Source: Planctomycetota bacterium (lineage in GTDB: Bacteria > Planctomycetota > UBA1135 > UBA2386). Taken from it: a stretch of 64,000 nucleotides of DNA. How positions within the stretch are numbered: position 1 is the stretch's first letter; each line of letters starts with the position of its first letter. The DNA is taken from contig OZ245006.1 of NCBI GenBank assembly GCA_965223545.1, positions 7,168,001 to 7,232,000 on the forward strand, read 5' to 3'. The notes under the pieces are model-generated. The model did not search any database. It was given only the letters and a program-made list of their open reading frames with translations, and was not told where the DNA came from. Below are positions 25,049 through 39,990 of this stretch, one piece after another. The translations under genes were made by a program, and so were the position numbers.

Positions 25049-27220
25049 TCAGGGTGACGCCGTCAGCGCCTCGAGCAGTTGGTCCTGTGGCTGCCGGCTG
25101 CCACCGGTGCGGCGGTAGGAGCCGTCGGCCTGCAGGTCCCAGCCATCGACGTCCTCGCCGAGGTAGACCTCGAGGCCCTCGTGCAGCACGCGCTGCCGCA
25201 GTACCGGGTCCTCGATCGGAAAGGCGAGCTCGATCCGCCGGAAGAAGTTGCGCGGCATCCAGTCGGCGCTGGCCAGGTAGGTCAGGCGCTTGCCGCCGGC
25301 GTGGAAGTGGTAGATGCGGTGGTGCTCGAGAAAGCGGCCGAGCACCGAGCGGACGCGGATGTTGTCCGACAGACCCGGCAGACCGGGCCGCAGACAACAG
25401 ATACCGCGCACCACGAGGTCGACTTCGACCCCGGCCTGCGACGCGCGGTAGAGCGCGGCGATCACGTCGGGCTCGATCAGCGCGTTCATCTTGGCGCGGA
25501 TCCTCGCCGGTTGACCGGCGGCGGCGGCGGCGGTCTCGCGCTCGATCAGGTCCATGACCAGCGCGTGCAGCGCGAACGGAGCCTGCACGGCCTTGCGCAG
25601 TGGCCGCACCGCGCCCAGCCCGGTGAGCTGTTGGAACAGCTCGTGCGCGTCCGCCGTCAGGTCGGGGTCGCAGGTCAGCAGGCCGAAATCGGTGTACGAA
25701 CCCGTCGTCTTGTAGTGGTAGTTGCCGGTGCCGAGATGGACGTAGCGGCGGATGCCATCCGCCTCGCGGCGGACGATCAGCACCATCTTGGCGTGCGTCT
25801 TGAAGCCGCCGACGCCGTACACCACCTTTGCGCCCACATCCTGCAGTCGCATCGCGGTGTCGATGTTCTGTTCCTCGTCGAACCGCGCGCGCAGCTCGAT
25901 CACCGCGGTGACCTCCTTGCCGTTGCGAGCCGCTTGCAGCAGAGCCTCGGTGAACGGCGAATCGCGGCCGGTGCGGTAGAGGGTCGCCTTGATCGCCAGC
26001 ACGTCGGGGTCGCTGGCCGCCCGGCGCACGAGATCGACGACCGGCTCGAAGGGCTGGAATGGGTGGTGCAGCAGGACGTCGTTGGCGCGGATCGCGGCGA
26101 ACGGGTCCTCGAGCATCGCCGCTCCACCGGGCGGCTGCGGCCGGAAGCGCGGGAACTTGAGCTCCGGCCGGTCGACCAGATCGTACAGCGCTGAGAGGCG
26201 ATGCATGTTGACCGGTCCGTCGACCCGGTACAGATCGTCCTCGCCGAGGCCGAACTCGCGCAGTAGCTGCTGCTGGATCTCTGGCGGGCAGGTCTCGTCT
26301 ACCTCCAGCCGGACCGAGTTGCCGTAGCGCCGCCGCGGCAGCTCGCCTTGCAGGGCGCGCAGCAGGTCGTCGATCTCCTCCTCGTTGAGCCACAGATTGC
26401 TGTCGCGGGTGACCCGGAACGCGTGGCAGCCGCGCACTGTCATGCCCGGAAACAGCAGATCCACGTTGGCGCGGATCATGCTGGACAGGGTCACGAATGC
26501 CTCGCCGCCCGCCGGCATCGGTGCGGGGACGGCGATCAGTCGCGGCAGCAGGCGCGGCGCCTGGACCACCGCGACGCGGCTGTCGCGGTCGTAGCCGTCC
26601 ACGCCCTCGAGCGTGACCAGGAAGTTGAGGCTCTTGTTGACGATGGCCGGAAACGGGTGTGAGGGGTCGAGGCCGACCGGCGTCAGCACCGGCAGGACTT
26701 CGCGCTCGAAGGCGGCCGAGATGGCGCGGTGCATGGAGGCGTTCCACTCCGAACTCGACAAGACGTGAATGCCGTGCTCGGCGAGCGCGGGCAAGATCTC
26801 GCGGTTGAGCAGCGCGTACTGCTCGGCGACCAGCTGTTTGGCGCGGCGGCTCACCTGGTCCAGAACCTCGAGCGAGCTGTCCTCGTGGTGGGTCGAGTCG
26901 GTGATTCCCAGCGCGATGCGCTGCCGCAGCCCGGCGACGCGCACCTCGAAGAACTCGTCGAGGTTGGTCGAGCAGATGGCGAGGAACTGCAGCCGCTCGA
27001 GGAGTGGCAGGCGCACGTCCTCGGCCAGGGCCAGCACGCGCCGGTTGAACTCGAGCAGGCTGATCTCGCGGTTGATCAGCTGGCTGCGGTCGAGGGCGAT
27101 CCGCGGTTGCTGTCGCCGTTCGTCACCGTCGCCGACGCCCGCCGCGGCGGAGGACGCGGGTGCGCCGCGGTCTGGTGCGCGGTCCGGTGTGCCGTTGCGC
27201 GGCTCGCGGGAAGTGCTCAC
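25049..27220 (-). CDS. ppk1: Polyphosphate kinase 1
   Basis: NREISLLEFN.RVL, NLDEFFEVRVA, SHPFP, ARFDEEQNI, KTHAK, GTGNY, GRFLEH.R and SADWMPRN motifs. Confidence 0.97.
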   Translation of the reverse strand: MSTSREPRNGTPDRAPDRGAPASSAAAGVGDGDERRQQPRIALDRSQLINREISLLEFNRRVLALAEDVRLPLLERLQFLAICSTNLDEFFEVRVAGLRQRIALGITDSTHHEDSSLEVLDQVSRRAKQLVAEQYALLNREILPALAEHGIHVLSSSEWNASMHRAISAAFEREVLPVLTPVGLDPSHPFPAIVNKSLNFLVTLEGVDGYDRDSRVAVVQAPRLLPRLIAVPAPMPAGGEAFVTLSSMIRANVDLLFPGMTVRGCHAFRVTRDSNLWLNEEEIDDLLRALQGELPRRRYGNSVRLEVDETCPPEIQQQLLREFGLGEDDLYRVDGPVNMHRLSALYDLVDRPELKFPRFRPQPPGGAAMLEDPFAAIRANDVLLHHPFQPFEPVVDLVRRAASDPDVLAIKATLYRTGRDSPFTEALLQAARNGKEVTAVIELRARFDEEQNIDTAMRLQDVGAKVVYGVGGFKTHAKMVLIVRREADGIRRYVHLGTGNYHYKTTGSYTDFGLLTCDPDLTADAHELFQQLTGLGAVRPLRKAVQAPFALHALVMDLIERETAAAAAGQPARIRAKMNALIEPDVIAALYRASQAGVEVDLVVRGICCLRPGLPGLSDNIRVRSVLGRFLEHHRIYHFHAGGKRLTYLASADWMPRNFFRRIELAFPIEDPVLRQRVLHEGLEVYLGEDVDGWDLQADGSYRRTGGSRQPQDQLLEALTASP

Positions 27221-27801: not shown

Positions 27802-30800
27802 TCAGCCGGCCCGCCGCAACCAGTCCTCGGCGACCCGCCGCAAGTCGTCTCCGTCGCCCGGCTCGTCGTTGCCGAAGTAGCGCCGCTCGATGTCGTCGAT
27901 CGTCTGGCGGAGCTCGCCGTGGGTCGCGTCGGACAGCCCGCCGCAGCGCTGCAGGTCGCGCAGCAGGCCGAGGACGGTGAACGGCGTGATCGTGTCGGGC
28001 AAGGTCCTGCCGGCGGCCACCGGAGCGCGCCGCGCACTGCGCAACCCGTGCCAGAGCAGCAAGGCCAGCAAGGCCAAGAGCAGGGCGCCGCCGACGAGCC
28101 AGGGCCAACGGCTGCTGGGCTCGCCGTAGCGCTCGTCGAGGTTGGCGACGCGCTCGGCGGTCACCAGGTCGGCGTCGGCATAGCGCTGGTAGACGACCTC
28201 GGTGAGCGAGTCGGTGGCCTCGGCGAACTCGAACGTGGTGGGGTGCGCCGGCAGACCGGGCTTGGCCTGCAGCGTGACCATCCACGTGCGCTCGGAGATC
28301 ACCGCCTCCTGGCCCTCGTCGAACTGTGAGACCAAGACGCCCCGGTCGTCGACCTTCTGCACGTCGAACTCGCTCGGCGCCAAGTCCACGATCTCCTCGA
28401 GATCGGGCACCAGCCCCTTGGCGGTTCCCTTGATTTCGAGAACGAGCACGCCCTCGTCGGCGCGGCGTTCGTCGAGGATCTGGGTGACCTCGAGGTCCTC
28501 GTACGGCCGCGGCTCGGCAACCGTGGAGCTGGCATCGATGGCGACGGGGGCCGAGCCCACCGGCAGCACGGCGTAGCCGGACGTGTCGAGGAAGTCCATG
28601 TCGAGCTGCAGCGTGGGGATCGTGTCGATCTGCGGTCCGCGCGCGCGCAGCAGCAGATAGGCGTAGGGCGTGACCCGCCAGCCGTACTCCTCGGTGGCCT
28701 TGGAGTGCACGTCTTCGCTGTTGAACGTCACCGACAGCACCTCGAAGTGCTCCATCAGCGCGCGGCTGGCCGCCTCTTGGAACTTGTCGCGGTAGTTCTC
28801 CGTCGGCCGGCCGTAGTTGTAGGCGTACGGCGTGTTGTTCTGGTTCTGCAGGTACTTGGCGAAGCCGCCGCTCTCGCGCTCGATCTCTCGAGTGTGGCGC
28901 AAGTCGATGCGCACGCCGAACGGCTCGGTGCCGACGCGGCTGTCGCCGTCGACGTTCGCCACCAGCTGGATCTCGGTGACCAGGTCGCTGTAGTAGTCGA
29001 ACACCTTGCGCGCCTCGTGCGCCGCCGGGTGGTCGCCGACGATGGCAAAGCCGTGCTCCAGGTAGCGGTGCTTGACCTGCGGGCGCACTGCGCTGAGGCG
29101 GTTGAAAAGGCTGGACGCGAACTTGGCGCGGTGGCGCTCACCGATCTCGCCGGGCAGCGCGGCAAGCGAGTCGCGGATCATGCCGATGTGGCGCGGAACG
29201 GCGGTGCTGCGTTCGTCGAGCTGGCTCAGCTCGCAGCTGCCCAGGGCCGCGTAGAACCAGGTCTCGAACGCCTCGGTCGACTCGTCTTCCTGCGACATGT
29301 CGGTGGTCGCCTCGGTGTAGAGGCGGGCGGCCTCGACGAACTGCTGCAGCGCAGCGAGTCGCCGGGGGGCGAACTCGGAGCTCTTCTGCGCCTCCTGGCG
29401 GAAGTCGTTCTCGTCGTGGGCGAGCGCCGCGTCGGCGACGTGCAAGGCCCATTCGTCGGGATGCCGGGTCAACGCCTGGGCGATGACTTCGCGGGCGACG
29501 CTGTAGCCGCGCAGCACTTCCTGCTGGAGGTCTTTCTGTCGCCGTTTGGTCTTGTTCTGTTCTTGGACGGCGGGCTGCCGCCAGACGCTCACCAAGTTGC
29601 TGCGCATCTGCTGCACGAGCTTCGCCAGGGTCTGGGGCTCGATTGCGTCGAGCTCGCCGAACACCTCGCGCACGGCCTCGAGGCGGTAGACCTCCGCTTG
29701 GCTGTGGCTGGCGGTGAATGCCGACACCAGCAGCTGCTCGTCGAGGTCCTCGATCGGCAGGCTCCGCAGCTTGCGCACCCAGCCGGCGAGATCCTTGAGG
29801 TTGCGCTGCTGCTTGGAGCGGGTCAGCGGAATGCCGTTGGCGCGCTGGTTGAATCCGTACATGAACATGTACGGATCCGTCATGTTGTTGCTGTTGGGGT
29901 TGTGGTTCTTGGTCCACACCCGCAGGAACTCTTCGGCGAGCTCGCCGGCGGCTTCGGCGTGGGTGGCGGCCAGCTTCTCGATGAATGGGAACGCCAGCGC
30001 CTCTTCGTTGACCTTGAGGTAGAGCTTGGCGACCACGGTGGCGAAGCGCGGCGTCAAGCTGTCGTCGAGCTGGGCCTGCCAGGCCTCGCTGGGGGTGATC
30101 TTGAGCAGCTCGCCCGGATCGATCGCGCGCACCGGGGATTGCGGGCCGCGGTTGCCGCTGTAGCCGATGTAGAAGATGTTGCCATAGGCGTCGCGCTGCA
30201 TGCGGGGGCCCAGGCTCTCGGCGCTGGAAAAGCGATACGCGTGGTTGGCCTCGGCCAGCCAGTTGGCCGCCAGCAGGTTCAGGCTGGGACGCCACTCGCG
30301 GGCGCGCTCCGGTGCTCGGCCGAGTAGGGCCTCGACCGCCGTCTGCTGCAGCTGCAGGCCAGTCAGGCGCCAGCTGGTCGCCTGGGCGTGGGTCTCCATC
30401 GCCTTGGATGCCTGTGCGCCGATGGTGGCGATCACTTCCATGCCGCGCTCGGGGCGCTCGGTGAAGCTCTCGGCGAGCCACGCCTCGCCCAGCTCCTCGC
30501 GAATCTTCGGTGCCAACTCGACAGCGCGCCGCAGCGCCTCTTGCTTGGCGTCTTCTTCGATCTCGCCGTCGGCGAGCGCCGCCTGCACGATGTGCCAGGC
30601 GTCTTCGAGGTGGGCGACTTTCTGCTCGCGGCCGTACAGCGCGAGGTGGTAGCGCGAGAGCAAATTGAGGGCCTCGCGGTCGTTGGCCGCAACCGCCGCT
30701 TCGCGGTCGGGCAAGAACTCGCCGAGAAAGCGGTCGTTGCCGGTCGCCGCGAGGAGGAGCGCGGCGTGGCGGTCCTGCACGACGCGCTCCGCTTGGTCGC

Positions 30801-31890
30801 GGGCGGTCTCCTCGCGCAGCAGCACGAGCAGCTCTTCGATCGCGTGGCCATCCTGCAGGGCGCGTTGCGCGATTCCGCCGAGGAGTGCGACCTGTTCGCT
30901 CTTCAGCTCCGCGGGCGCCGCCGCCAGCAGCCCGACGAGGTCTTGGAAGTCGAAGGTGTTCTGCTCCAGCAGGTTGGCGGGGACGCGGTTGTTGCCGCCG
31001 GCGCGGGGCGCGGTCGGCAGCGCCTTGAGCAGTTGCTCGTACAGCTGCATCGCCTGCTTCTCCTCGAACTCGTCCAACGTCTCTCCGACCCGCACCCAGC
31101 GGCCCAGAGTCACGTGGCGCTGGTAGAGCTCGAGCTCGGCCTTCTTCTTCTCGGCTTGCAGCTCGGTGAGCTCCTTCTGCCAGGCGGCGAGCTCGGGGTC
31201 GGCGGCCGGCTGGGGAGCGGGCGTCGGCGTCGCGGTGGGCGCCGCCGTGGCCGGCTCTGCCGGGGTGGGCGCGGCCTCGGCGGTGCTCGGCGTTTCCTCC
31301 ACCGTGGGGTCGGCCGCCGGTGGTGTTGTCGGTTGGGCCGGAACGAACACGCCGGTCGCAGCCGAGGTGCTCGGCGCGAGCGTGAGCGTGCCCGCGGGCG
31401 TCGCTGGTTCCTCGCCGCCTACCGGCGCGGGCTCGGTGGCCTCGGGTCCTTCGGTGATGGTCGAGGGTGCGTCCGCGTCGTCCTCGCTCGGCGGCGTTTG
31501 CGCGCCGGTGCCCTCGCCCGGTGTCTGCGCCGGCGTGGCGGTGCCGAGCTCCTTCTGCCGGGCTTCGATCTTGGCCTGCAGCGCGTCGATCTTCTCCTGG
31601 ATCGAGGCTGGGCTCTCCGGCTCGGCGGCCGCCCACGCGGCGAGCCTAGCGGAAGGCCGGCGGTCGAACTTGAGCTGCATCATCGGCTGCAGCCTGGGGT
31701 CGGGCGGGGCGTCGGTCGCTGCCGCTGCCGGAGCCGGCCCACCGCCCTGGACGATGCTCACGGCCGGGGTGCCCGGCGCGGTGACGACGCGGCCGGGCAG
31801 ACTGCGGATGATGACGGGCTGCTGGGCGGTGACCGTGGTCACCGCGCCGAGCGCGAGGAGACCGGCGAGACATTGGAGCGAAGCGTGCAT
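27802..31890 (-). CDS. Large exported protein (1362 aa): Pro/Ala/Thr linker, alpha-solenoid core, beta-rich (BatD-like) region, C-terminal TM anchor; last gene of the MoxR/VWA operon
   Basis: Signal peptide MHASLQCLAGLLALGAVTTVTA; TM WPWLVGGALLLALLALLLW; co-oriented with the operon. Confidence 0.85.
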   Translation of the reverse strand: MHASLQCLAGLLALGAVTTVTAQQPVIIRSLPGRVVTAPGTPAVSIVQGGGPAPAAAATDAPPDPRLQPMMQLKFDRRPSARLAAWAAAEPESPASIQEKIDALQAKIEARQKELGTATPAQTPGEGTGAQTPPSEDDADAPSTITEGPEATEPAPVGGEEPATPAGTLTLAPSTSAATGVFVPAQPTTPPAADPTVEETPSTAEAAPTPAEPATAAPTATPTPAPQPAADPELAAWQKELTELQAEKKKAELELYQRHVTLGRWVRVGETLDEFEEKQAMQLYEQLLKALPTAPRAGGNNRVPANLLEQNTFDFQDLVGLLAAAPAELKSEQVALLGGIAQRALQDGHAIEELLVLLREETARDQAERVVQDRHAALLLAATGNDRFLGEFLPDREAAVAANDREALNLLSRYHLALYGREQKVAHLEDAWHIVQAALADGEIEEDAKQEALRRAVELAPKIREELGEAWLAESFTERPERGMEVIATIGAQASKAMETHAQATSWRLTGLQLQQTAVEALLGRAPERAREWRPSLNLLAANWLAEANHAYRFSSAESLGPRMQRDAYGNIFYIGYSGNRGPQSPVRAIDPGELLKITPSEAWQAQLDDSLTPRFATVVAKLYLKVNEEALAFPFIEKLAATHAEAAGELAEEFLRVWTKNHNPNSNNMTDPYMFMYGFNQRANGIPLTRSKQQRNLKDLAGWVRKLRSLPIEDLDEQLLVSAFTASHSQAEVYRLEAVREVFGELDAIEPQTLAKLVQQMRSNLVSVWRQPAVQEQNKTKRRQKDLQQEVLRGYSVAREVIAQALTRHPDEWALHVADAALAHDENDFRQEAQKSSEFAPRRLAALQQFVEAARLYTEATTDMSQEDESTEAFETWFYAALGSCELSQLDERSTAVPRHIGMIRDSLAALPGEIGERHRAKFASSLFNRLSAVRPQVKHRYLEHGFAIVGDHPAAHEARKVFDYYSDLVTEIQLVANVDGDSRVGTEPFGVRIDLRHTREIERESGGFAKYLQNQNNTPYAYNYGRPTENYRDKFQEAASRALMEHFEVLSVTFNSEDVHSKATEEYGWRVTPYAYLLLRARGPQIDTIPTLQLDMDFLDTSGYAVLPVGSAPVAIDASSTVAEPRPYEDLEVTQILDERRADEGVLVLEIKGTAKGLVPDLEEIVDLAPSEFDVQKVDDRGVLVSQFDEGQEAVISERTWMVTLQAKPGLPAHPTTFEFAEATDSLTEVVYQRYADADLVTAERVANLDERYGEPSSRWPWLVGGALLLALLALLLWHGLRSARRAPVAAGRTLPDTITPFTVLGLLRDLQRCGGLSDATHGELRQTIDDIERRYFGNDEPGDGDDLRRVAEDWLRRAG

Positions 31891-32013
31891 GCGAGTTCGG
31901 CGGTTCGCTTGAAAGGGGGTGGAAAGAGAAACGGCGGCGGGCGCGAAGTCGTTCCGCGCCGCCGCCGGGTCATGGTTGGGGGCAGGTCTGGGTCGAGACG
32001 ACGGTGGGCTGCG

Positions 32014-32715
32014 TCAGGATCCGCTGCCGTCCGGCGGCGGGCCGGAGCTGGCCCCGCGCGCATCCTTCTTGCCCTTTGGCTTGCTCATGCTCTTGCGACC
32101 GCGACCGCGGCCACTGCCACAACCCTCTCACTGACTGGGGAGGGGGAGGCCTTGCAACTCCTCGAGCTCGAGCCGCGCCAGGCGGATCGAGGACTCGAGA
32201 TCCTCTCGGTGTTCGGTGGCCTTGGCGTCGTCGCCCCGCGCCTCGGCCTGCTCGGCGAGCAATCGGTAGGTCTGCCGCGAGGCCTCGATCTCGGCTTCCC
32301 ATCGGGTGCGCTCGACGCCCTCGAGCCGCATCAGCCAGGTCATGTAGTACTGGGCGTTGGCGAGCGCGGCGCGCGCGTCGGCCAGCAGTGCTGCGTCGTC
32401 GGTGTCGGCCAGGTCGGCGACCAAGATCTCGAGGTCGGCGCGTGCCTGCGGCAGCTGGCTGACCTGCATCTGGGCCTTGGCCCGCGCCAGGCGGATCCGC
32501 TGTGCGTCGACTTCGTGCCCGTCCGGCAGCTCCGCCAACGCGGCCTCGTAGGCGGTCACCGCCGCGGCCCAGTCGCCGTCGGTCGTCGCGCGGTGCGCGT
32601 CGGCCAGGTAGTCGTCGGCGCGGTCCAGCGCCATCCGATCTTGGCCGGGACCCTCGTGATAGGCCCAGGCGCCGATCGGCAGGAGGGCCCAAGCGGCCAG
32701 CAACGGTTTTCTCAT
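32014..32715 (-). CDS. Exported TPR-like protein, probable selenoprotein (233 aa, Sec196, UxxC motif)
   Basis: ATG 32715 with GAGGAG SD; TPR-like helices; ...LQGLPLPSQ-TGA(32128-32130)-EGCGSGRGRGRKSMSKPKGKKDARGASSGPPPDGSGS-stop(32014); SECIS-like stem-loop after the TGA. Confidence 0.8.
32095..32114 (-). promoter_or_regulatory. Bacterial SECIS-like hairpin (TPR selenoprotein gene)
   Basis: GUGGCCGC-GGUC-GCGGUCGC: 8-bp stem (2 G.U pairs) starting 14 nt after the UGA, GGUC loop as in the E. coli fdhF SECIS. Confidence 0.78.
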
Positions 32716-32798: not shown

Positions 32799-33845
32799 TT
32801 ACGCTCGATCTGCGGTAGCCGGGTGATTTTGCCGGCGTGCCGCCGCAGCCGGCCGCGCCGTGGCCGTCTTGGCGGGCGCCGCGCCGGTCGCGGGCACGCC
32901 GGGCCGCCACAGCGTGCCGGCGAAGTGCAGCAGCAGCGGCAGCACGGCCAGCAGCGCCGCGCCGATCAGCACGGCCAGCAGCGCGTACTCGCGCAGAGTC
33001 AACCGCTCCAGCATCGACTTGCCGCCGCTGTCCGTGATCTGGCGAATGGTGTCGGTTGGCAGGTGCTTGGCATTGCCGTCGTGGAACACGCCGTCGAGGC
33101 GGGTGGCGATCTGGCGCAGCGTCGAGGTGTCCTGCCGGGACTGTCGCCCGTCGATGAACGTGCCCGCCATCGGATCGCCGACCCCGATGACCAGCACCTC
33201 GGCGACCGACGGCGGCATCTGCGGCATGCCGGTGGCCGGCACGGTGTCGCCGTCGCTGATGACGATCAGGATCGTGCTCTTGGCGCGCCATGCCTTGGCG
33301 ACCGAGGCCGCTTCTTCCAGGCCAGCGAACAGCTTGGTCTTGCCCGAGCGGAACGCGTAGTGCATCGGCAGGTCGGTGAGGATGTTGCGCACGACCTCCG
33401 AGTCCTGCGTGCCGATCACCACCGGCTTGGCACCGGTGTAGGTGGCGATCACCGAGATCTTGTAGTGGCCGAGCGACACGCGGCTGAACAGCGAGTCCAA
33501 CACGTCGCGTGCCCGCTCTTGCCGGGCTTGCTTCTGGGTCGGGCCCGCGTCCGCCAGCCGCATGCTCGGTGAGACGTCGAGGACGATCAGCAGATTGCGC
33601 ATCTCCTCGTCCTTGATCGCATCGCTCTTGTGCACCTTGGGCTCGACGGTGAGCAGCGTGGCGAGCCCCCAGGTCATCAAGCCGCTGGCGACCACGCGCA
33701 GCAACGGGACCGCCCGCGTCCAGGCCGCGGCGCGGGCGCGCGGGCCGAACGCCAACCGCGCGATCCGGCGGATGCGGCGGGAGTGCCATGCCTCGCCGGC
33801 GAGTACGAGCAGGCAAACCGCCGCCGTGGCCAGGCCGATCACCAC
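32799..33845 (-). CDS. VWA domain membrane protein (BatB-like)
   Basis: MIDAS LDVSPSM and ISDGD; N- and C-terminal TM helices; GTG start overlapping the upstream stop. Confidence 0.88.
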   Translation of the reverse strand: MVIGLATAAVCLLVLAGEAWHSRRIRRIARLAFGPRARAAAWTRAVPLLRVVASGLMTWGLATLLTVEPKVHKSDAIKDEEMRNLLIVLDVSPSMRLADAGPTQKQARQERARDVLDSLFSRVSLGHYKISVIATYTGAKPVVIGTQDSEVVRNILTDLPMHYAFRSGKTKLFAGLEEAASVAKAWRAKSTILIVISDGDTVPATGMPQMPPSVAEVLVIGVGDPMAGTFIDGRQSRQDTSTLRQIATRLDGVFHDGNAKHLPTDTIRQITDSGGKSMLERLTLREYALLAVLIGAALLAVLPLLLHFAGTLWRPGVPATGAAPAKTATARPAAAARRQNHPATADRA

Positions 33846-34756
33846 GGCGTGTACCTCAAGAACAGCTGGGTGAGGGCGAACAGGCCCAGCAGCGACAGCC
33901 CGATGACGCACAGGGCGACGAAGTCGTCGACGTACTCGGCGGCACCCTTCTCCAACTCGGCCTTGGCCATCTCGTCGATGCGCCGAAAGACGTCCTCCAG
34001 ACTGGCCGGGTCGCCGGGTTGGAACACGTGTCCGCCGGTCTGCGCGGTGATGTTGACGATGTCGCCGGGAACCTCCGACTCCGAGATGTGCACGCCGTAG
34101 ACCGAGATGTTGTCGCGCTGCATGTCGCGGGCGATCTCGGTGGCGCGGTCGCCGAACAGGTCGGCGCTGACGCCGTCGGAGACCAGGATGATCATGCGGT
34201 CGCCCTCTTCGCGCTGGACCAGCACTTCGCGGCAGGCGAGCAGCGCCTTGCCGATCTCGGTACCGCCGAACCAGGGCGGTGCGCGATCGGGCCGCATGAA
34301 CGGCGGCGCGCAGCGGAAGGCGGAGACGTCATTGGTCAGGGGCACCCAGTGCAGGACCGAGTTGCCGAAGAAGGTCAAGCCAAAGGCGTCTCCCTCGCGG
34401 TAGTCGAGGAACTGATTGATCGCCCTCATCGCCGCGTCGTAGCGCGTGCCGCCGCCGAACTGCGCCGACATGCTGCCCGAGATGTCGACGCAGAACTCGA
34501 TGTTGGTCAGCGCCCGCTGCACTTTCGGCGCGGTCAGCTTCTGTGGCTCTGCCCACAGCAGGATCGCCACGGCCAGGCCGAGGGCCGGCAGCGACTCGGC
34601 GCTTTGCACTGCACCGGCCAACCAGCGGCCGCTGCCGGCGACTGCGTGGTCGAACGGCAGCACGGTGCGCCGGCCGCGCCGGCGCCAGGTGAACCACACC
34701 AACAGGGCGGGGAACACCAAGAACAGCAACACCCAGGGCTTGCCGAACAGCTCCAT
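33839..34756 (-). CDS. VWA domain membrane protein (BatA-like)
   Basis: N-terminal F.KPWVLLFL BatA-type TM; MIDAS VDISGSM, GTEIG.AL, LVSDG. Confidence 0.9.
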   Translation of the reverse strand: MELFGKPWVLLFLVFPALLVWFTWRRRGRRTVLPFDHAVAGSGRWLAGAVQSAESLPALGLAVAILLWAEPQKLTAPKVQRALTNIEFCVDISGSMSAQFGGGTRYDAAMRAINQFLDYREGDAFGLTFFGNSVLHWVPLTNDVSAFRCAPPFMRPDRAPPWFGGTEIGKALLACREVLVQREEGDRMIILVSDGVSADLFGDRATEIARDMQRDNISVYGVHISESEVPGDIVNITAQTGGHVFQPGDPASLEDVFRRIDEMAKAELEKGAAEYVDDFVALCVIGLSLLGLFALTQLFLRYTPW

Positions 34757-34759
34757 CGT

Positions 34760-35629
34760 CTACGCCGCCCCCGCGGCGCCGGTGGAGTCCCGCGCCTCGG
34801 GGTCCGGCGCGTTCCGGTAGGGCTCGAGCAGAGCGTTGATGTCGACCGGCGCGGTGGGGGCGGGGCGGTGCAGCCATTCTTCGAGCTGGCGCACCAGAGC
34901 GCCGGCTTGCTCGTGTTCGCGCAGCGCGGCCATCGCCGCACTCGCCTTGGCTTCGGTGAGCCCCAAGCGCTCGCGCCAATAGCCGACCAGCAGCCGCTCC
35001 AGAGTGGCCTTGCCGCCGTCGTCGAGCCGCCCGTGCATCGCGTCTTCGACCATCGGCCGCAAGCGGTCGGCGAGAGTACGCGGCCGGGCGGCCACTGCGG
35101 CCTCGTTCTTGCGGCGCCGCCGACCGGCGAACAGGATTGCGAGGAGGCCGATGCCCCAGACGATCCCGGCGACGACCAGCCACGTGCGGTAGCCGCCGAT
35201 CGCCGGCGGCCTTTCGACCTGCAGCGGATTGGGTTCGATCTCGTGCGGCGGCCGCACCGGCACCACGGTGACGGCTACGGGAGGCAGGGCCTGCACCGCG
35301 CTGCCGTCGGCGCGGACCAGCAACGCGCCGAGGTCGTACTGTCCCGGCTCCAAGCCGTAGTACTCGAAGTCGTAGCGCGTGGCGGTGCCGTGCGGATAGT
35401 GGTCGACGATGTGCAGCACCAACGGCGCGCCGCGCTGGCGCGGCGCCACGATCAGGGCGGGCCCCGGCAGCACGACCGAGTCGAGGCGCGCCCGCATGCC
35501 GACCGGCACCTCGGGCGGTGAGGCGTCCGTCCCGTCGGCCTGAGCAGCGGCGCTCGCGCACAGCAGGGCGGTGGACAACACGGCGAGGACCGGCCCGCCC
35601 GACGGGCGGCTCTTGGACGTGGGCATCAT
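34760..35629 (-). CDS. Hypothetical exported membrane-anchored protein of the MoxR/VWA operon
   Basis: Signal peptide, Ig-like beta region (YDFEYYGLEPGQYDL), one TM, helical tail; ATGA overlap with DUF58. Confidence 0.8.
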   Translation of the reverse strand: MMPTSKSRPSGGPVLAVLSTALLCASAAAQADGTDASPPEVPVGMRARLDSVVLPGPALIVAPRQRGAPLVLHIVDHYPHGTATRYDFEYYGLEPGQYDLGALLVRADGSAVQALPPVAVTVVPVRPPHEIEPNPLQVERPPAIGGYRTWLVVAGIVWGIGLLAILFAGRRRRKNEAAVAARPRTLADRLRPMVEDAMHGRLDDGGKATLERLLVGYWRERLGLTEAKASAAMAALREHEQAGALVRQLEEWLHRPAPTAPVDINALLEPYRNAPDPEARDSTGAAGAA

Positions 35630-36486
35630 CGCGCTCCGCGGCCGAGCAGGCCGCGCGATGCAAAGAAGTGGCGCAGCCGGTGGGCGAACGGCCGGTCGGT
35701 GCGGATCACGAAGTGGTCGATGCCGCCGCGGCGCAGCTCGGCGACGACGGCCTCCTGGTCGAGCCAGCGCCGCCGGCCGTGCGTGGCGAACGCGGCCCCG
35801 GTCTCCGCCTCCCGGACGCGCAAGAAGCCGGCACCGCGCAGGTCGATCTCGGCGGGGTCGCGCAGCTGCACCGCGACACAGTCGTGCACTTGTCCCAGCA
35901 GCTTCAGCGCCGGCAGGGCTGTGTCATCGTGCAGGTCGCTCAACACGATCACCAGCGACCGATGGGTGAGGCTCGGCTGCAGCTCGCCGATGCGCTGCGC
36001 CAGGGTCGTCTTCTCGTCGTAGCGGAACCGGCGCAGCTCGAGCAGCCAGCGCAGGATCTGGTCCTTCGCCAAGCTGGGTTGGATGCGCAGCTCGCGCTGG
36101 CCGACGCCGATCACGCCGACCGGGCTGACGCGTTCCAGGCAGGCCAGCGCCAGGCCTCCGGCGACGTGCAGCGCGACCGCGTACTTGCTTCGCTGCGTCG
36201 ACTGGATCGTCATCGACGCCGAGGTGTCCAGCAGCAGGTAGCAGGGCATGCGCTTGGGCGCCTCGTAGTCCTTGACGTGGACGCGGCCGGTGCGCGCGGT
36301 GACGCGCCAGTCGATGGCGCGGATCGGGTCGCCGTACTGGTAGGGGCGGGACTGGACGTACTCGATGCCGGAGCCGAGGAAGCGCGAGTGGTCGGTGCCG
36401 TAGCTCAACGTGTCCGCCAGCTTGCGGATGGCGATGAAGAACTGGCGCGCGTCGAGGGTGTCGACCGTTTGCAGCTGGCCTTCCAC
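35626..36486 (-). CDS. DUF58 domain protein
   Basis: GSGIEY.QSRPYQYGDPIRAIDWRVTAR, LLDTSASM and LSDL motifs; GTG start approximate. Confidence 0.92.
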   Translation of the reverse strand: MEGQLQTVDTLDARQFFIAIRKLADTLSYGTDHSRFLGSGIEYVQSRPYQYGDPIRAIDWRVTARTGRVHVKDYEAPKRMPCYLLLDTSASMTIQSTQRSKYAVALHVAGGLALACLERVSPVGVIGVGQRELRIQPSLAKDQILRWLLELRRFRYDEKTTLAQRIGELQPSLTHRSLVIVLSDLHDDTALPALKLLGQVHDCVAVQLRDPAEIDLRGAGFLRVREAETGAAFATHGRRRWLDQEAVVAELRRGGIDHFVIRTDRPFAHRLRHFFASRGLLGRGAR

Positions 36487-36497
36487 GCCGCCGCTCG

Positions 36498-37514
36498 CTA
36501 CGGCGCCCCCATCTCGGACAGCATCTCCTGCAAGGTTTGCGGTCCGCTGAGTCCGTCCGCCAGCGCCTCGTAGCTCAGGCGGATGCGGTGCAGGATGACG
36601 TCCTCTGCCAGCGCGAACAAATCCTCGGGCACCGCGTAGTCGCGGCCGCAGATCAGCGCGCGCGCGCGCGAGGCCTTGACCAGGGCGATGCCGGCGCGCG
36701 GACTGCAGCCCAGCTCCAGGGCGGGGTGGCGCCGGGTGCGGTCGACGATCTCGACGACGTGCTCCATGAACGTCTCGCTGACGTGCACGGCTTGCACACA
36801 CTCCATCGCCGCGGCGAGTTCTTCGGGGCCGCCGACCGCTTCGTCCTTGATCACGTCGAACTCGGTGCGCGCCACTGCGCCGCCGCCGTCTTCGCGGCGC
36901 ACGCCGAGATTGGCGTTGCGGCGCAGCACCTCTTTCTCCTGCGCCGTGGTGAGGTACTCGAGCCGGTGCAGCAGCATGAAGCGGTCGAGCTGCGCCTCCG
37001 GCAGCTCGAAGGTGCCGGATTGTTCAACCGGGTTCTGCGTGGCGATCACCAAGAACGGCGCCGGCAGCCCGTAGGTCTGGTTGCCGATCGTGACCTTGCG
37101 CTCCTGCATCGCCTCGAGCAGCGCGCTCTGCACCTTCGGCGCGGCGCGGTTGATCTCGTCGGCGAGGAGCAGGTTGGTGAACACCGGCCCCTTGTGGGTG
37201 CGGAACTCGTGCGTCTTCTGGTCCAGGATCTCCGAGCCGAGGATGTCGGAGGGCAGTAGGTCGATGGTGAACTGGATGCGGGCGAAGTCGAGCTTGACGG
37301 TCTTCGACACGGCCGCCACCAGCAGAGTCTTGGCCAAGCCGGGGACGCCCTGCAGCAGCAGGTGGCCCGAGGTCAGCATCGCGATCAAGATGCGCTCGAC
37401 GACCACGTCTTGGCCGACGACGACCTCGCCGACGCGTTCACGGATGGCGCTGACGAACTCCGCGGTCTGTTCGAACTGTTGACTGCGGCTCGCGGGTTGG
37501 GTTTGCGTCGGCAT
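36498..37514 (-). CDS. moxR: MoxR family AAA+ ATPase
   Basis: GVPGLAKT, RIQFT.DLLPSD, LADEINRA, ATQNPVEQ.GT..LPEAQLDRF and GCSPR motifs. Confidence 0.95.
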   Translation of the reverse strand: MPTQTQPASRSQQFEQTAEFVSAIRERVGEVVVGQDVVVERILIAMLTSGHLLLQGVPGLAKTLLVAAVSKTVKLDFARIQFTIDLLPSDILGSEILDQKTHEFRTHKGPVFTNLLLADEINRAAPKVQSALLEAMQERKVTIGNQTYGLPAPFLVIATQNPVEQSGTFELPEAQLDRFMLLHRLEYLTTAQEKEVLRRNANLGVRREDGGGAVARTEFDVIKDEAVGGPEELAAAMECVQAVHVSETFMEHVVEIVDRTRRHPALELGCSPRAGIALVKASRARALICGRDYAVPEDLFALAEDVILHRIRLSYEALADGLSGPQTLQEMLSEMGAP

Positions 37515-37649: not shown

Positions 37650-39824
37650 TCACTCGCCGACGACGGCGCGCAGGCCCTGCGTCCATCGCAGGGTGGCCGG
37701 GCCGAGCACGGCCGACTGGGCGTGGACCGCGATGCCGCGCACGGCGATGGCCCCGGCGATGGGCAAGGGCAGGTGCGCGATGCCGTGCGAATTCGAGACC
37801 CACGGCACTGCGGTCCACAGCATCGCCGGGTCGACCAGCAGTGTACAGCCGGCGCCGATCGGAGTGGCGGCGGCGGCGCCCCCGAGCAGCGTGGCGCCGG
37901 CGGTGCTGGCCGTCGACGCCGTGCGCAAGGCGAAGCTGCCGTTGCCGCGCCACGGGCGGCCGTAGGCCTCGAGCACGGCAGTCGGCGTTCCACAGCCGGT
38001 GCCGTACTGCGTCGCGATCGCCGCCGGCGTCGAGCCGTACACCCAGAGGTCGTCGGCGGTATTGCACGACATTCCGAGCGCGCAGGCGTGGCCACCGTAG
38101 AGCACGATCTGCTGGCGTGCGTGGTCATAGACCATGGCGTGCGCGATCCGCGGGGCCGGCGCCGCGGCGCCACCGGTGCGAGCCCAGTCGGTACCATCCC
38201 ACTCCCAAGTGTTGCTGCTGCTGGGCAGACCCGGGCTGGTGCGCGCACCGCCGAACAGGACGACGCGCTGGCGCGAAGCGTCGTACGCCAGCGCCGCTTG
38301 GCCGTCGGTGTCCGGAACCGTGGCGGGAGTGCGTTGCTGCCAGTCGCTGCCATCCCATTCCCAGGTCTCGCCGTTGAACAGCAGAACGTTTCCGCGCGCC
38401 GCGTCGTGGACCAGGGGGCCGTTGGCGAGCGGTTGGTTGGCAGGAGTGTGCAGGGTCCAGCCGGTGCCGTCCCACTCCCACGTCTGCAGTGCCGGATCAC
38501 CGCCGAACAGCACGACGCGATCGCGGGCGGAGTCGTACGCGAGACCGTGGCCGGCGCGCGGTGACGGGGCGGGAGTGGCCGTGTGCTGCGTCCACGCTGC
38601 GCCGTCGAACGACCAGAAGTCCCCGAATAGCTGCACCGGGGTACGACCGCCGAACAGCAGCAGCCGCTGGCGCCGGCTGTCGTAGACCAACGGCGAGAAG
38701 CGACGCGCCGGCGGGGCCACCGCTGGAGTGACATGGTGCCACGCACTGCCGTCCCATTCCCAGGTGCGGGCATTGACCGCGAGGAGGTCGCCAAACAGGA
38801 CGACTCGCTGGCGTGCTTGGTCGTAGCCGAGGGAGTGGCCACTGCGGCCCAGCGGGGCGTCGTCGATGCGACGCCAAAGCGCGCCATCCCACTCCCAGGT
38901 GTCGCGCAAGAACCCGCTCGGTGGCCAAATGCCGCCCCAGCCGCAGGTGAGAACGGTGCGTCGTCGGGCCGCGTCGTAGGCCATCGCCGCGCCGGTGCGA
39001 CCGCCGGGACCGGGTCCGGTGCGCTCGATCCAGCGCGCGCCGTCCCATTCCCAAGTGTCGTCCAGGAGCACTCCAGTGGGGCGGGTGCCACCGTGCAACA
39101 CGATGCGCTGCCGGTCCGAGTCGTAGCTCATGGCCGCGCCGCTCCGCACAGGCGGCTGGGGGTTGGCGGGATGCTCGCGCCAGGTGATGCCGTCCCAAAG
39201 CCAGGTCGGCGCGCCGGTCGCGGGACCCCTGGGAGAGCCGCCGAACAGCAGCATGATTTGACGAGAGGCGTCGTAGGCCAACGTCGCTCCGCTCAGTCGG
39301 GGCGGGCGAGCGGTTGGCGACAGCTGGGTCCAGGTGCCGCCGTCCCAGGTCCAAGTCTCCATGCCGAGGTTGCCCTGGTTGACCGCGATCACCAGGCCGC
39401 GGGCCACGTCGTACGCCATCGCCACCCAGTTGGTGACCCACGGCATGACCGCGACCTGGAGGTCGGTCCAATCATGGCCGTCCCACTCGAACGTGCGCGG
39501 GCGGCTGCCGTCGTAGCCGACCACCACGACGCGCCCACGGCGGCTGTCGTAGGCGCTGGCCAGATTCTTGAGCCGTGGTGGAGACGTGGCCGCCACGCGC
39601 GGGGTCCAGCGCGCCCCGTCCCACTCCCACGAATCGGTCAACCTGCCGTTGATCGCGTCGCCGCCGTGGAGGAGTACGTGGCCGCGCGCGGGATCGAACT
39701 CCGCGGCGGCGAGGCGCCGGCCGGTGGGCCACTCTTTGGCGACCCATTCCTGCGCGATGGCGCGGCAATCCGGACCCGAGACGATCGCCAGCATGGCCAA
39801 GAGGTAGTGCGGCCGGGAGAGCAT
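37650..39824 (-). CDS. Secreted Kelch-like beta-propeller repeat protein
   Basis: About 12 repeats of AYD..R.RVVLFGG...DTWEWDG..W; signal peptide; C-terminal YGTGC domain. Confidence 0.88.
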   Translation of the reverse strand: MLSRPHYLLAMLAIVSGPDCRAIAQEWVAKEWPTGRRLAAAEFDPARGHVLLHGGDAINGRLTDSWEWDGARWTPRVAATSPPRLKNLASAYDSRRGRVVVVGYDGSRPRTFEWDGHDWTDLQVAVMPWVTNWVAMAYDVARGLVIAVNQGNLGMETWTWDGGTWTQLSPTARPPRLSGATLAYDASRQIMLLFGGSPRGPATGAPTWLWDGITWREHPANPQPPVRSGAAMSYDSDRQRIVLHGGTRPTGVLLDDTWEWDGARWIERTGPGPGGRTGAAMAYDAARRRTVLTCGWGGIWPPSGFLRDTWEWDGALWRRIDDAPLGRSGHSLGYDQARQRVVLFGDLLAVNARTWEWDGSAWHHVTPAVAPPARRFSPLVYDSRRQRLLLFGGRTPVQLFGDFWSFDGAAWTQHTATPAPSPRAGHGLAYDSARDRVVLFGGDPALQTWEWDGTGWTLHTPANQPLANGPLVHDAARGNVLLFNGETWEWDGSDWQQRTPATVPDTDGQAALAYDASRQRVVLFGGARTSPGLPSSSNTWEWDGTDWARTGGAAAPAPRIAHAMVYDHARQQIVLYGGHACALGMSCNTADDLWVYGSTPAAIATQYGTGCGTPTAVLEAYGRPWRGNGSFALRTASTASTAGATLLGGAAAATPIGAGCTLLVDPAMLWTAVPWVSNSHGIAHLPLPIAGAIAVRGIAVHAQSAVLGPATLRWTQGLRAVVGE

Positions 39825-39990
39825 CGTTCGCGATGGTAGTCCAACGCAGGCGAAATGCCTTGCAGGTCCGGCAGGCCCTGCGGTGGGCGCACGCTTTCGC
39901 TAGGATCGTCGAGACAACCTCCACGTGCGCGCCGGTTGCGAGGTGCTCCTCGTGCAGGGGCGCGTTGACCATCGGGAGAGGAGCGACCGA

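Follow-up and report, generated by a model that had tools for sequence, protein, structure and literature searches.

A candidate selenoprotein family with an in-frame UGA in a Bat-type MoxR/VWA operon of Planctomycetota

The in-frame TGA and what follows it

Does a gene for a small helical protein in a planctomycete operon end at its first in-frame TGA, or is that codon read as selenocysteine (Sec)? The question arises in a 64,000-nucleotide stretch of a Planctomycetota genome (assembly GCA_965223545.1, contig OZ245006.1, positions 7,168,001 to 7,232,000; hereafter the window), where a gene on the minus strand (32014..32715) starts with ATG 32713-32715 and runs for 233 codons, one of them the candidate Sec codon, to the terminator TGA 32014-32016. 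Translation gives 195 residues ending in ...LQGLPLPSQ, a TGA at 32128..32130 (minus strand), 37 further codons encoding EGCGSGRGRGRKSMSKPKGKKDARGASSGPPPDGSGS, and then the terminator. An earlier note on this DNA had described an apparent stop with 37 in-frame codons beyond it, a UxxC motif at the TGA, and a product that annotation pipelines would cut at 195 residues. All of this holds: the frame stays open as described, the motif reads U-E-G-C with Cys as the third residue past the TGA (Cys199, 32119..32121, minus strand, at least 90% conserved in protein alignment A1), and the public protein P0001, of 195 residues, matches the stretch ahead of the TGA at 100% identity. The profile position of the TGA is also where about 31 of the 150 best cluster representatives stop. 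The window protein has Cys only within this motif, and the read-through tail (32017..32127, minus strand) is a Gly/Arg/Lys-rich, disordered linker that closes with the conserved DARGASSGPPPDGSGS. From the comparisons set out below, we consider it very likely (probability about 0.92) that the gene product is a 233-residue selenoprotein rather than a 195-residue protein, and that UGA196 is a genuine Sec codon. A sequencing error, which the earlier note had named as a possible cause of the TGA, finds no support in public data, as contigs of three runs, X1 and X3 from one study (possibly the source sample itself) and X6 from another, cover the codon with zero differing letters.

Homologues keep either this codon or a Cys in its place. 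When the read-through protein was searched against the genomes of 40 relatives, 19 gave a full-length match; 17 of these, from 17 genera, align over residues 1-233 with an internal TGA, and the two more distant ones match without a stop and carry Cys at the TGA column (LPLPKD-C-KCNC...). At the DNA level, the TGA of the relatives occupies one column, directly behind LQGLPLP-x-x. Of 401 sampled genomes of the phylum, 46 contain the gene at E <= 1e-10, with a TGA inside the match in 33 and none in 13. Named records yielded 496 loci, with titles mostly from Planctomycetota and a few from Verrucomicrobiales; the best 80, a set biased towards the Sec-form query, comprise 63 TGA forms and 17 Cys forms. 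All 76 in-frame stops of the 63 Sec-form loci are TGA, with TAA and TAG absent, whereas true termination in the 80 genes is mixed (TGA 48, TAG 21, TAA 11). Direct reading of DNA placed Cys at the TGA column in 28 distinct loci, and many database proteins have it as well, for example the Cys-form homologue QDV37511.1 of Tautonia plasticadhaerens. Both signs by which the earlier note proposed to judge its case, a conserved TGA and a Cys at the U position, were thus found.

The surrounding motif is more variable than the codon. Column 196 is invariant in alignment A1 (C196), and the Cys-form alignment A4 shows C-x2-C-x4-C, with two invariant Cys, including C198, and a third conserved to at least 90%; the Cys forms hold three to six clustered Cys, as in CQGCCSSNCQCKGKC with about six. 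Among the 63 Sec forms the motif is UxxC in 45, UxxCC in 5, Ux5U in 11 and UxxxU in 2. Outside these 63, UxxU was also seen, and the partner Cys is changed to Thr or Ser in loci L045 and L046 (U-x-G-T, U-x-G-S); across the relatives, Cys199 is replaced in some by Sec, Ser, Thr, Ala or Asn. The UxxC motif of the earlier note therefore stands for the window protein, but it is not strictly conserved in the family because UxxU, UxxxU, Ux5U, UxxS/T and C-U variants exist.

The DNA beyond the TGA evolves as coding sequence. In 86 distinct Sec-form tails, compared without a peptide filter, the mismatch at codon positions 1, 2 and 3 is 0.30, 0.26 and 0.60 over the last 16 codons, and 0.73, 0.71 and 0.72 over the 16 triplets past the terminator. 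This codon-position bias ends at the terminator, which argues that the sequence after the TGA is translated. In the 80 loci the tail measures 35-50 codons and keeps its frame through many indels to a common end, ...G-P-P-P-D-G-x-G-S/N/H, so that the tail conservation sought by the earlier note is present both as a shared C-terminus and as codon-position conservation.

Two further observations concern the edges of the family. The database proteins P0104 and P0124 (251 residues) and P0121 (211 residues, on 38 contigs) are near-identical and share one 90% cluster; P0121 ends in LPLPSQ, and P0104/P0124 run on through C-KGCGSGRGRG... with a tail matching that of the TGA-form locus L031. The sequences of P0104/P0124 point either to a very recent TGA-to-Cys change that kept the SECIS-coded peptide (SECIS: selenocysteine insertion sequence) or to a U stored as C. 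Loci L084, L101, L116, L119, L128 and L139 are titled Verrucomicrobiales or Verrucomicrobiia and L135 is titled Alcaligenaceae; they have the same operon and are mostly Sec forms, and a protein atlas search returned unnamed clusters of Planctomycetota and Verrucomicrobiota. The family may extend into Verrucomicrobiota, or some of the labels or genome bins may be wrong.

The hairpin and the selenium machinery

The earlier note had also placed an 8-bp stem with a GGUC loop 14 nt past the TGA, and the hairpin was located there, at 32095..32114 on the minus strand, with the tetraloop at 32103-32106; the same nucleotides code for SGRGRGR. Counted from the U of UGA as 1, it occupies nt 17-36 with the loop at nt 25-28 and eight pairs, two of them G-U; the gap from UGA to stem is 13 nt (the stem starts 14 nt after the codon) and that from UGA to loop is 21 nt. 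The loop of the E. coli fdhF SECIS also reads GGUC. A published model of the bacterial SECIS (PMC13188914, section 5) has a loop of 3-9 nt with G in the first two loop positions, a stem of 4-16 bp, a spacing of 16-37 nt and a minimum free energy <= -7.5 kcal/mol, and the window hairpin (loop GGUC, 8 bp, 21 nt) agrees with all four printed criteria. An Rfam scan of 31900-32300 gave no family with a meaningful score.

Across the family, 83 of 85 distinct Sec forms, versus 0 of 28 distinct Cys forms, have a hairpin of at least 5 bp with a GGUY loop (Y, pyrimidine) past the codon. The loop lies at +25 in most genes, and 14 different stem sequences occur among the best 80 loci. Across 36 distinct hairpins of the main clade, neither the loop nor its closing pair varies, pairing is kept throughout at the inner five positions, and compensatory double changes occur at six of seven stem pairs. 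Covariation scores 0.605, versus 0.211 for shuffled sequences (0/500 reach the observed value) and at most 0.27 with the partners slid, a signal of which a large share comes from a few stem types inherited by many relatives. Each stem also encodes protein: GGCCGC-GGUC-GCGGCC gives G-R-G-R-G, AAGGCC-GGUC-GGCCU gives K-A-G-R-P, and CUCCUC-GGUU-CGAGGG gives L-L-G-S-R-G. Because the stem dictates the peptide after Sec, this stretch differs between the two forms, and Cys forms have Cys-rich sequence at the equivalent place (loci L004-L144 compared). In U-x-G-U genes, where a second TGA follows three codons on, the hairpin is shifted by 6 nt and lies at +31 relative to the first TGA and at +22 relative to the second; in such two-Sec variants the shifted hairpin also serves the second UGA. 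Of the two hairpins in locus L006 (U-x5-U), the first holds the second UGA in its loop.

Sec also occurs at a neighboring position. In one family of small genomes (8 loci) the motif is LPLPGG-C-U-QGSG, with Cys at the usual column and the TGA one codon later, followed by an unrelated stem with a GGUU loop at +22; a simple GGUY rule recovers the hairpin in three of these eight loci and RNAfold draws it in all eight. A quick maximum-likelihood tree built from 114 distinct rows of the helical domain (midpoint root, moderate support) unites the C-U group in one clade (Shimodaira-Hasegawa-like approximate likelihood ratio test, SH-aLRT, 100) inside an otherwise Cys-form basal group. The label Sec, Cys or C-U changes at least seven times on the tree, of which the well-supported branches force only two to three, for the Sec and Cys labels. 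We read these sequences as pointing to an ancestral Cys, at least two gains of Sec and several reversions.

The genome has the means to decode such a codon. The selA, selB, selC and selD genes that the earlier note advised looking for are represented by SelA (384 bits), a SelB wing domain within a 659-residue frame, a tRNA-Sec with anticodon tca, and SelD (346 bits; G000:C1:1264004-1264921, L149), whose gene adjoins selA and itself carries a TGA (GGG-U-AAK). A scan of the genome for a TGA followed by a GGUC hairpin returned 95 rows, mostly chance open reading frames (ORFs) in G+C-rich DNA. We judged five rows convincing: the gene studied here and four classical selenoprotein genes, in all of which a Pfam domain spans the TGA. 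Two of the four encode EF-hand/deiodinase-like (AhpC-TSA) proteins (G000:C1:1874881 and G000:C1:6713570; L145, L146) with FGSYT-U-PPF, the loop at +25 and a 7-bp stem; the other two encode AhpC/TSA-thioredoxin-like proteins (G000:C1:6226245, plus strand, and G000:C1:5051261, minus strand; L147, L148) with W-U-G-P-C, signal-like N-termini, a GGUC loop at +35 and a 7-bp stem. In the phylum sample, SelA is above the Pfam cut-off in 298 of the 401 genomes; at a stricter threshold of our own choice, E <= 1e-40, it is found in 32 of 33 TGA-form versus 6 of 13 Cys-form genomes (Fisher p = 2e-4, kinship ignored).

These data bear directly on two other ways of reading the codon. If the TGA were a true stop, the protein would end at Gln195 and the DNA beyond would hold either a small gene of its own or an RNA element such as a terminator or a regulatory hairpin. 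Gene callers do end the protein there, the window tail holds an ATG (MSKPKG...), and hairpins are common in such G+C-rich DNA, this one reaching a z of only -2.09. However, a stop at this point would not account for a frame kept through indels over 35-50 codons to the same G-S/N/H terminus, for third-position-biased divergence that ends at the terminator, or for Cys-form homologues that are uninterrupted ORFs over the same alignment. No internal start codon is common to the relatives, the in-frame stop is TGA in 76 of 76 cases whereas real terminators vary, and the hairpin lies about 80 nt ahead of the real stop with no U-run after it; we consider termination at Gln195 very improbable. The frame would stay open just as well if near-cognate suppression or a local recoding signal inserted one of the standard amino acids (Trp, Cys or Arg); the inserted residue is not readable from the sequence, and a hairpin could stimulate plain read-through. 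Such insertion we find scarcely credible, given that the hairpin fits the SelB-type SECIS model, the four classical selenoprotein genes use the same loop, the TGA form sits in SelA-bearing genomes (32/33), homologues align no residue but Cys there, the mark of Sec/Cys pairs, and TGA 32014-32016 still terminates this very gene.

Several points weigh against decoding as Sec. The case is comparative, and selenium insertion is deduced from DNA. The 51-nt fold of the hairpin (-17.7 kcal/mol, z = -2.09, equalled by 8/200 shuffles) is only moderately unusual in G+C-rich DNA, and the hairpin argument rests on comparison for that reason. The SelD hairpin of the same genome does not have a GGUC tetraloop; the GGUC loop is therefore not universal here, and the genome has more than one SECIS type. 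SelA was not found in one of the TGA-form genomes, G265 (83% complete), and at E <= 0.001 it has a match in 9 of 13 Cys-form genomes, a looser threshold at which the SelA contrast is weaker, in a comparison of related and hence non-independent genomes. The reading of UGA196 as Sec remains very likely in our view.

Architecture, operon context and possible roles

The protein begins with MRK followed by LLAAWALLPIGAWA; this N-terminal hydrophobic helix (MRKPLLAAWALLPIGAWAY, 32659..32715, minus strand) looks like an export signal or an N-in membrane anchor, and it is followed by an invariant H-x-GPGQ (H20, G22, P23, G24, Q25; alignment A1). Residues from about 20 to 190 (32146..32658, minus strand) form a TPR-like all-helical domain in an AlphaFold2 model built with 31 sequences (mean predicted local distance difference test, pLDDT, 86.5). 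The helices of the model span residues 2 to 189, and its block means, 81-98 over residues 21-190, fall to 64 at residues 191-200, which contain the Sec motif, and to below 50 beyond. LQGLPLP-x-x-U-x-G-C closes the helical domain and is followed by a disordered basic arm of about 35 residues. The TPR helices proposed by the earlier note are thus upheld as an all-helical, TPR-like model, but the matches are only to generic TPR-like helical repeats: weak TPR rows in a sequence search of the PDB (E = 2e-4 and weaker) and generic TPR matches in Foldseek against the PDB (E ~1e-2). A Pfam scan at E <= 0.01 found no family for the selenoprotein, and no thioredoxin-family match either; NCBIfam (June 2026) gave chance-level rows only, the best with 13.9 bits against a cut-off of 750. 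A thioredoxin-fold oxidoreductase was considered and rejected, as the model is all-helical, the Sec motif sits in a low-confidence linker and no thioredoxin-family Pfam model matches.

The gene lies in the Bat-like MoxR/DUF58/VWA operon that the earlier note had recognized; Pfam models identify MoxR, DUF58 and two VWA proteins encoded ahead of it in the same direction. In order, all on the minus strand, the operon encodes a MoxR-type AAA+ ATPase (36498..37514; Pfam AAA_3, E = 7.9e-63, and AAA_lid_2), a DUF58 protein (35626..36801; Pfam DUF58, E = 1e-37), a small protein of 289 residues with no Pfam or NCBIfam match that is syntenic in most loci (34760..35629), a BatA-like membrane VWA protein (33839..34756; Pfam VWA and VWA_2, NCBIfam VWA_BatA_Lepto at E = 1e-16, below cut-off), a BatB-like membrane VWA protein (32799..33845; Pfam VWA_2, a weak NCBIfam BatB match, alignment A3), the selenoprotein, and a large protein of 1362 residues in the position of BatD (27802..31890), with a signal-like N-terminal segment and a C-terminal hydrophobic helix. 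The last matches no Pfam or NCBIfam family, and its homologues contain no in-frame stop. The BatB-like protein has an invariant DVSPSM motif of the metal-ion-dependent adhesion site (alignment A3), and the BatA-like protein weakly matches the cobaltochelatase subunit model TIGR02442 (E = 0.0016). Of 76 loci with enough flank, 67 have the BatB-like gene upstream on the strand of the Sec- or Cys-form gene; MoxR is encoded in 49 of 60 loci and DUF58 in 52 of 60, and in 50 of 67 the gene for the large protein follows downstream in the same orientation. No further conserved in-frame TGA was found in the other operon genes of the 80 loci. Stops seen in DUF58 and in BatB were discarded as Sec codons, the former coming from an over-long ORF start that overlaps moxR and the latter being true ends over-run by tblastn.

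Some observations on gene limits and neighbors can be added. The DUF58 ORF as listed starts at 36801, about 300 nt inside moxR, and is probably too long. The listed start of the BatB-like ORF is GTG 33911, and 29 homologues point to GTG 33843-33845 as the likely true start, which overlaps the BatA-like stop by a few bases. Beyond the operon, 37650-39824 (minus strand) encodes a 724-residue protein with Kelch-like 'WEWDG' repeats and 39925-42603 (plus strand) an 892-residue protein with many 'DVDGDGDxD' repeats of FG-GAP/VCBS type, both recognized by eye; downstream of the operon, a 723-residue ORF (25049-27220, minus strand) presumably encodes a polyphosphate kinase, which it resembles by eye.

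In the mechanism that we propose, SelB and tRNA-Sec would read UGA196 as Sec under the guidance of the GGUC hairpin within the ORF, as the comparative evidence suggests, and yield a protein of 233 residues. The protein would be exported or anchored with its body outside the cytoplasmic membrane, and it may join the BatA-like and BatB-like proteins, whose VWA domains should also face outward by the positive-inside rule, as a periplasmic-side subunit. It would present its Sec/Cys center on the flexible basic arm, where selenol and thiol could form and resolve a selenenylsulfide and so exchange reducing equivalents with partner proteins. A VWA metal site could serve as the docking point of the conserved acidic C-terminus; a complex prediction with Cys-form homologues (BatB-like VWA domain, Mg and the Cys-form protein) gave no answer (score 0.00).

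A flexible redox-active arm is the function that we prefer, tentatively and at slightly less than even odds. UxxC is the commonest redox motif among selenoproteins, and the other selenoproteins of this genome are, save for SelD, thiol-redox enzymes, two of them thioredoxin-like with signal-like N-termini. According to the passages of PMC3557215 that report it, Tang et al. 1999 proposed that Bat proteins reduce oxidized periplasmic proteins or export reducing power. Set against a redox role are the lack of an oxidative-stress phenotype upon bat deletion in Leptospira biflexa, as given in the same passages (PMC3557215), the missing partner Cys in L045 and L046, a fold that is not thioredoxin-like, the three to six clustered Cys of the Cys forms, and C-U and UxxU motifs that resemble families named metal-binding in PMC13188914. 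The periplasmic topology is predicted from charge and hydrophobicity only.

Several of the same features would suit a soft-metal site (Cu, Zn, Hg or a bridged cluster), with the arm capturing or delivering metal for a chelatase-like MoxR/VWA machine. MoxR/VWA pairs act in the insertion of metal cofactors, as CoxD/E, NorQ/D and BchI/D do; here the adjacent VWA proteins keep an intact metal-ion-dependent adhesion motif, and the BatA-like protein has its weak cobaltochelatase match. The C-x2-C-x4-C pattern of the Cys forms, with two Cys invariant, one at least 90% conserved and about six clustered in some, together with the UxxU, UxxxU, Ux5U and C-U variants and the two variants without a partner Cys, would fit such a site, and several UxxU and CU families are named metal-binding or mercury-related (PMC13188914). 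However, no metal-binding domain model of Pfam or NCBIfam matches the protein, the Sec/Cys region is predicted to be disordered, the wide variation in chalcogen spacing fits a floppy redox arm equally well, and the N-terminus has no twin-arginine motif, so that an exported protein would presumably arrive without cofactor. We rate a metal site as nearly as likely as the redox arm, though below even odds, and roles other than redox or metal binding as unlikely.

Relation to known systems

The earlier note did not recognize the family as a described one, and our searches agree. Besides the absence of a Pfam or NCBIfam model, Table 1 of PMC13188914 (2026) lists 119 prokaryotic selenoprotein families or subfamilies with no TPR, Bat, MoxR or VWA entry, and the words Planctomyc-, TPR, von Willebrand, MoxR and aerotolerance are absent from its text. 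The available portion of the deep-Sep paper describes nine other new families. Among papers outside subscription-only journals, judged by title and the start of the abstract, none was relevant to selenocysteine with MoxR or von Willebrand domains, to selenoproteins of Planctomycetota or to those of aerotolerance Bat systems. Table S9 of a 2016 paper on a planctomycete genome (PMC4807772) names a 'hypothetical' candidate, with a Cys homologue in Rhodopirellula, that might belong to the same family.

The family is sizeable, with 496 loci in species-representative genomes and 191 clusters (50% identity) at E <= 1e-30, yet its members are systematically cut short by gene callers and are unlisted in current catalogues and NCBI models. 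Its architecture is unusual in that Sec does not lie in a thioredoxin fold but at the hinge that joins a disordered arm to a TPR-like scaffold, and the occurrence of Sec at two adjacent columns in two clades, with several Sec/Cys switches, amounts to a natural experiment. The finding puts a candidate redox or metal-binding group, and a concrete residue to mutate, into a Bat-type MoxR/VWA operon whose biochemical function is still called elusive, and should interest both the selenoprotein and the MoxR/VWA fields. More speculatively, the Sec/Cys arm might be the chemically active group of Bat-type MoxR/VWA envelope complexes. In that case the MoxR ATPase would power or remodel a planctomycete complex that acts in the periplasm as a selenol-based reductase or handles metal there, and Sec would have been recruited at least twice independently, at adjacent positions, because its chemistry is under strong selection. 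We rate this whole scheme as rather unlikely; if true, it would turn a 25-year-old operon of 'function elusive' into a testable redox or metal system.

Among known proteins, BatC of Bacteroides fragilis and its spirochaete relatives are comparable in position and fold: they too follow BatB in the order MoxR-DUF58-x-BatA-BatB-[gene]-BatD-like and are small TPR-type helical proteins with a hydrophobic N-terminus. In the passages of the BatC literature that were searched, no Sec or Cys-rich arm came up for BatC. The thioredoxin-fold UxxC selenoproteins (TlpA/AhpC-like, DsbA-like and thioredoxin-like) share the motif, the Cys homologues and probable export, but here the fold is all-helical and TPR-like and the second Cys is dispensable in some relatives. 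Mammalian thioredoxin reductase carries a C-terminal Gly-Cys-Sec-Gly arm, and the likeness to it is one of working only, in that a folded scaffold bears a Sec/Cys pair on its flexible C-terminal extension; there is no homology, the present protein has no flavin/NADPH domain, and its Sec lies about 37 residues from the C-terminus instead of in the penultimate position. Catalogued UxxU and CU families resemble the UxxU, UxxxU, Ux5U and C-U variants found here, but none of their NCBIfam models match and their operon context is another. With SelB-decoded genes, for which E. coli fdhF is the prototype (PMC13188914), the gene shares a UGA directly followed by a stem-loop, a small apical loop starting G-G/U, a spacing of 16-37 nt, the existence of Cys homologues, and selA, selB, selC and selD in the genome; it differs in belonging to a new family whose Sec borders a disordered arm instead of lying within the active-site fold of an enzyme. 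The decoding mechanism is thus the known bacterial one, and the protein family is new, with an unusual architecture.

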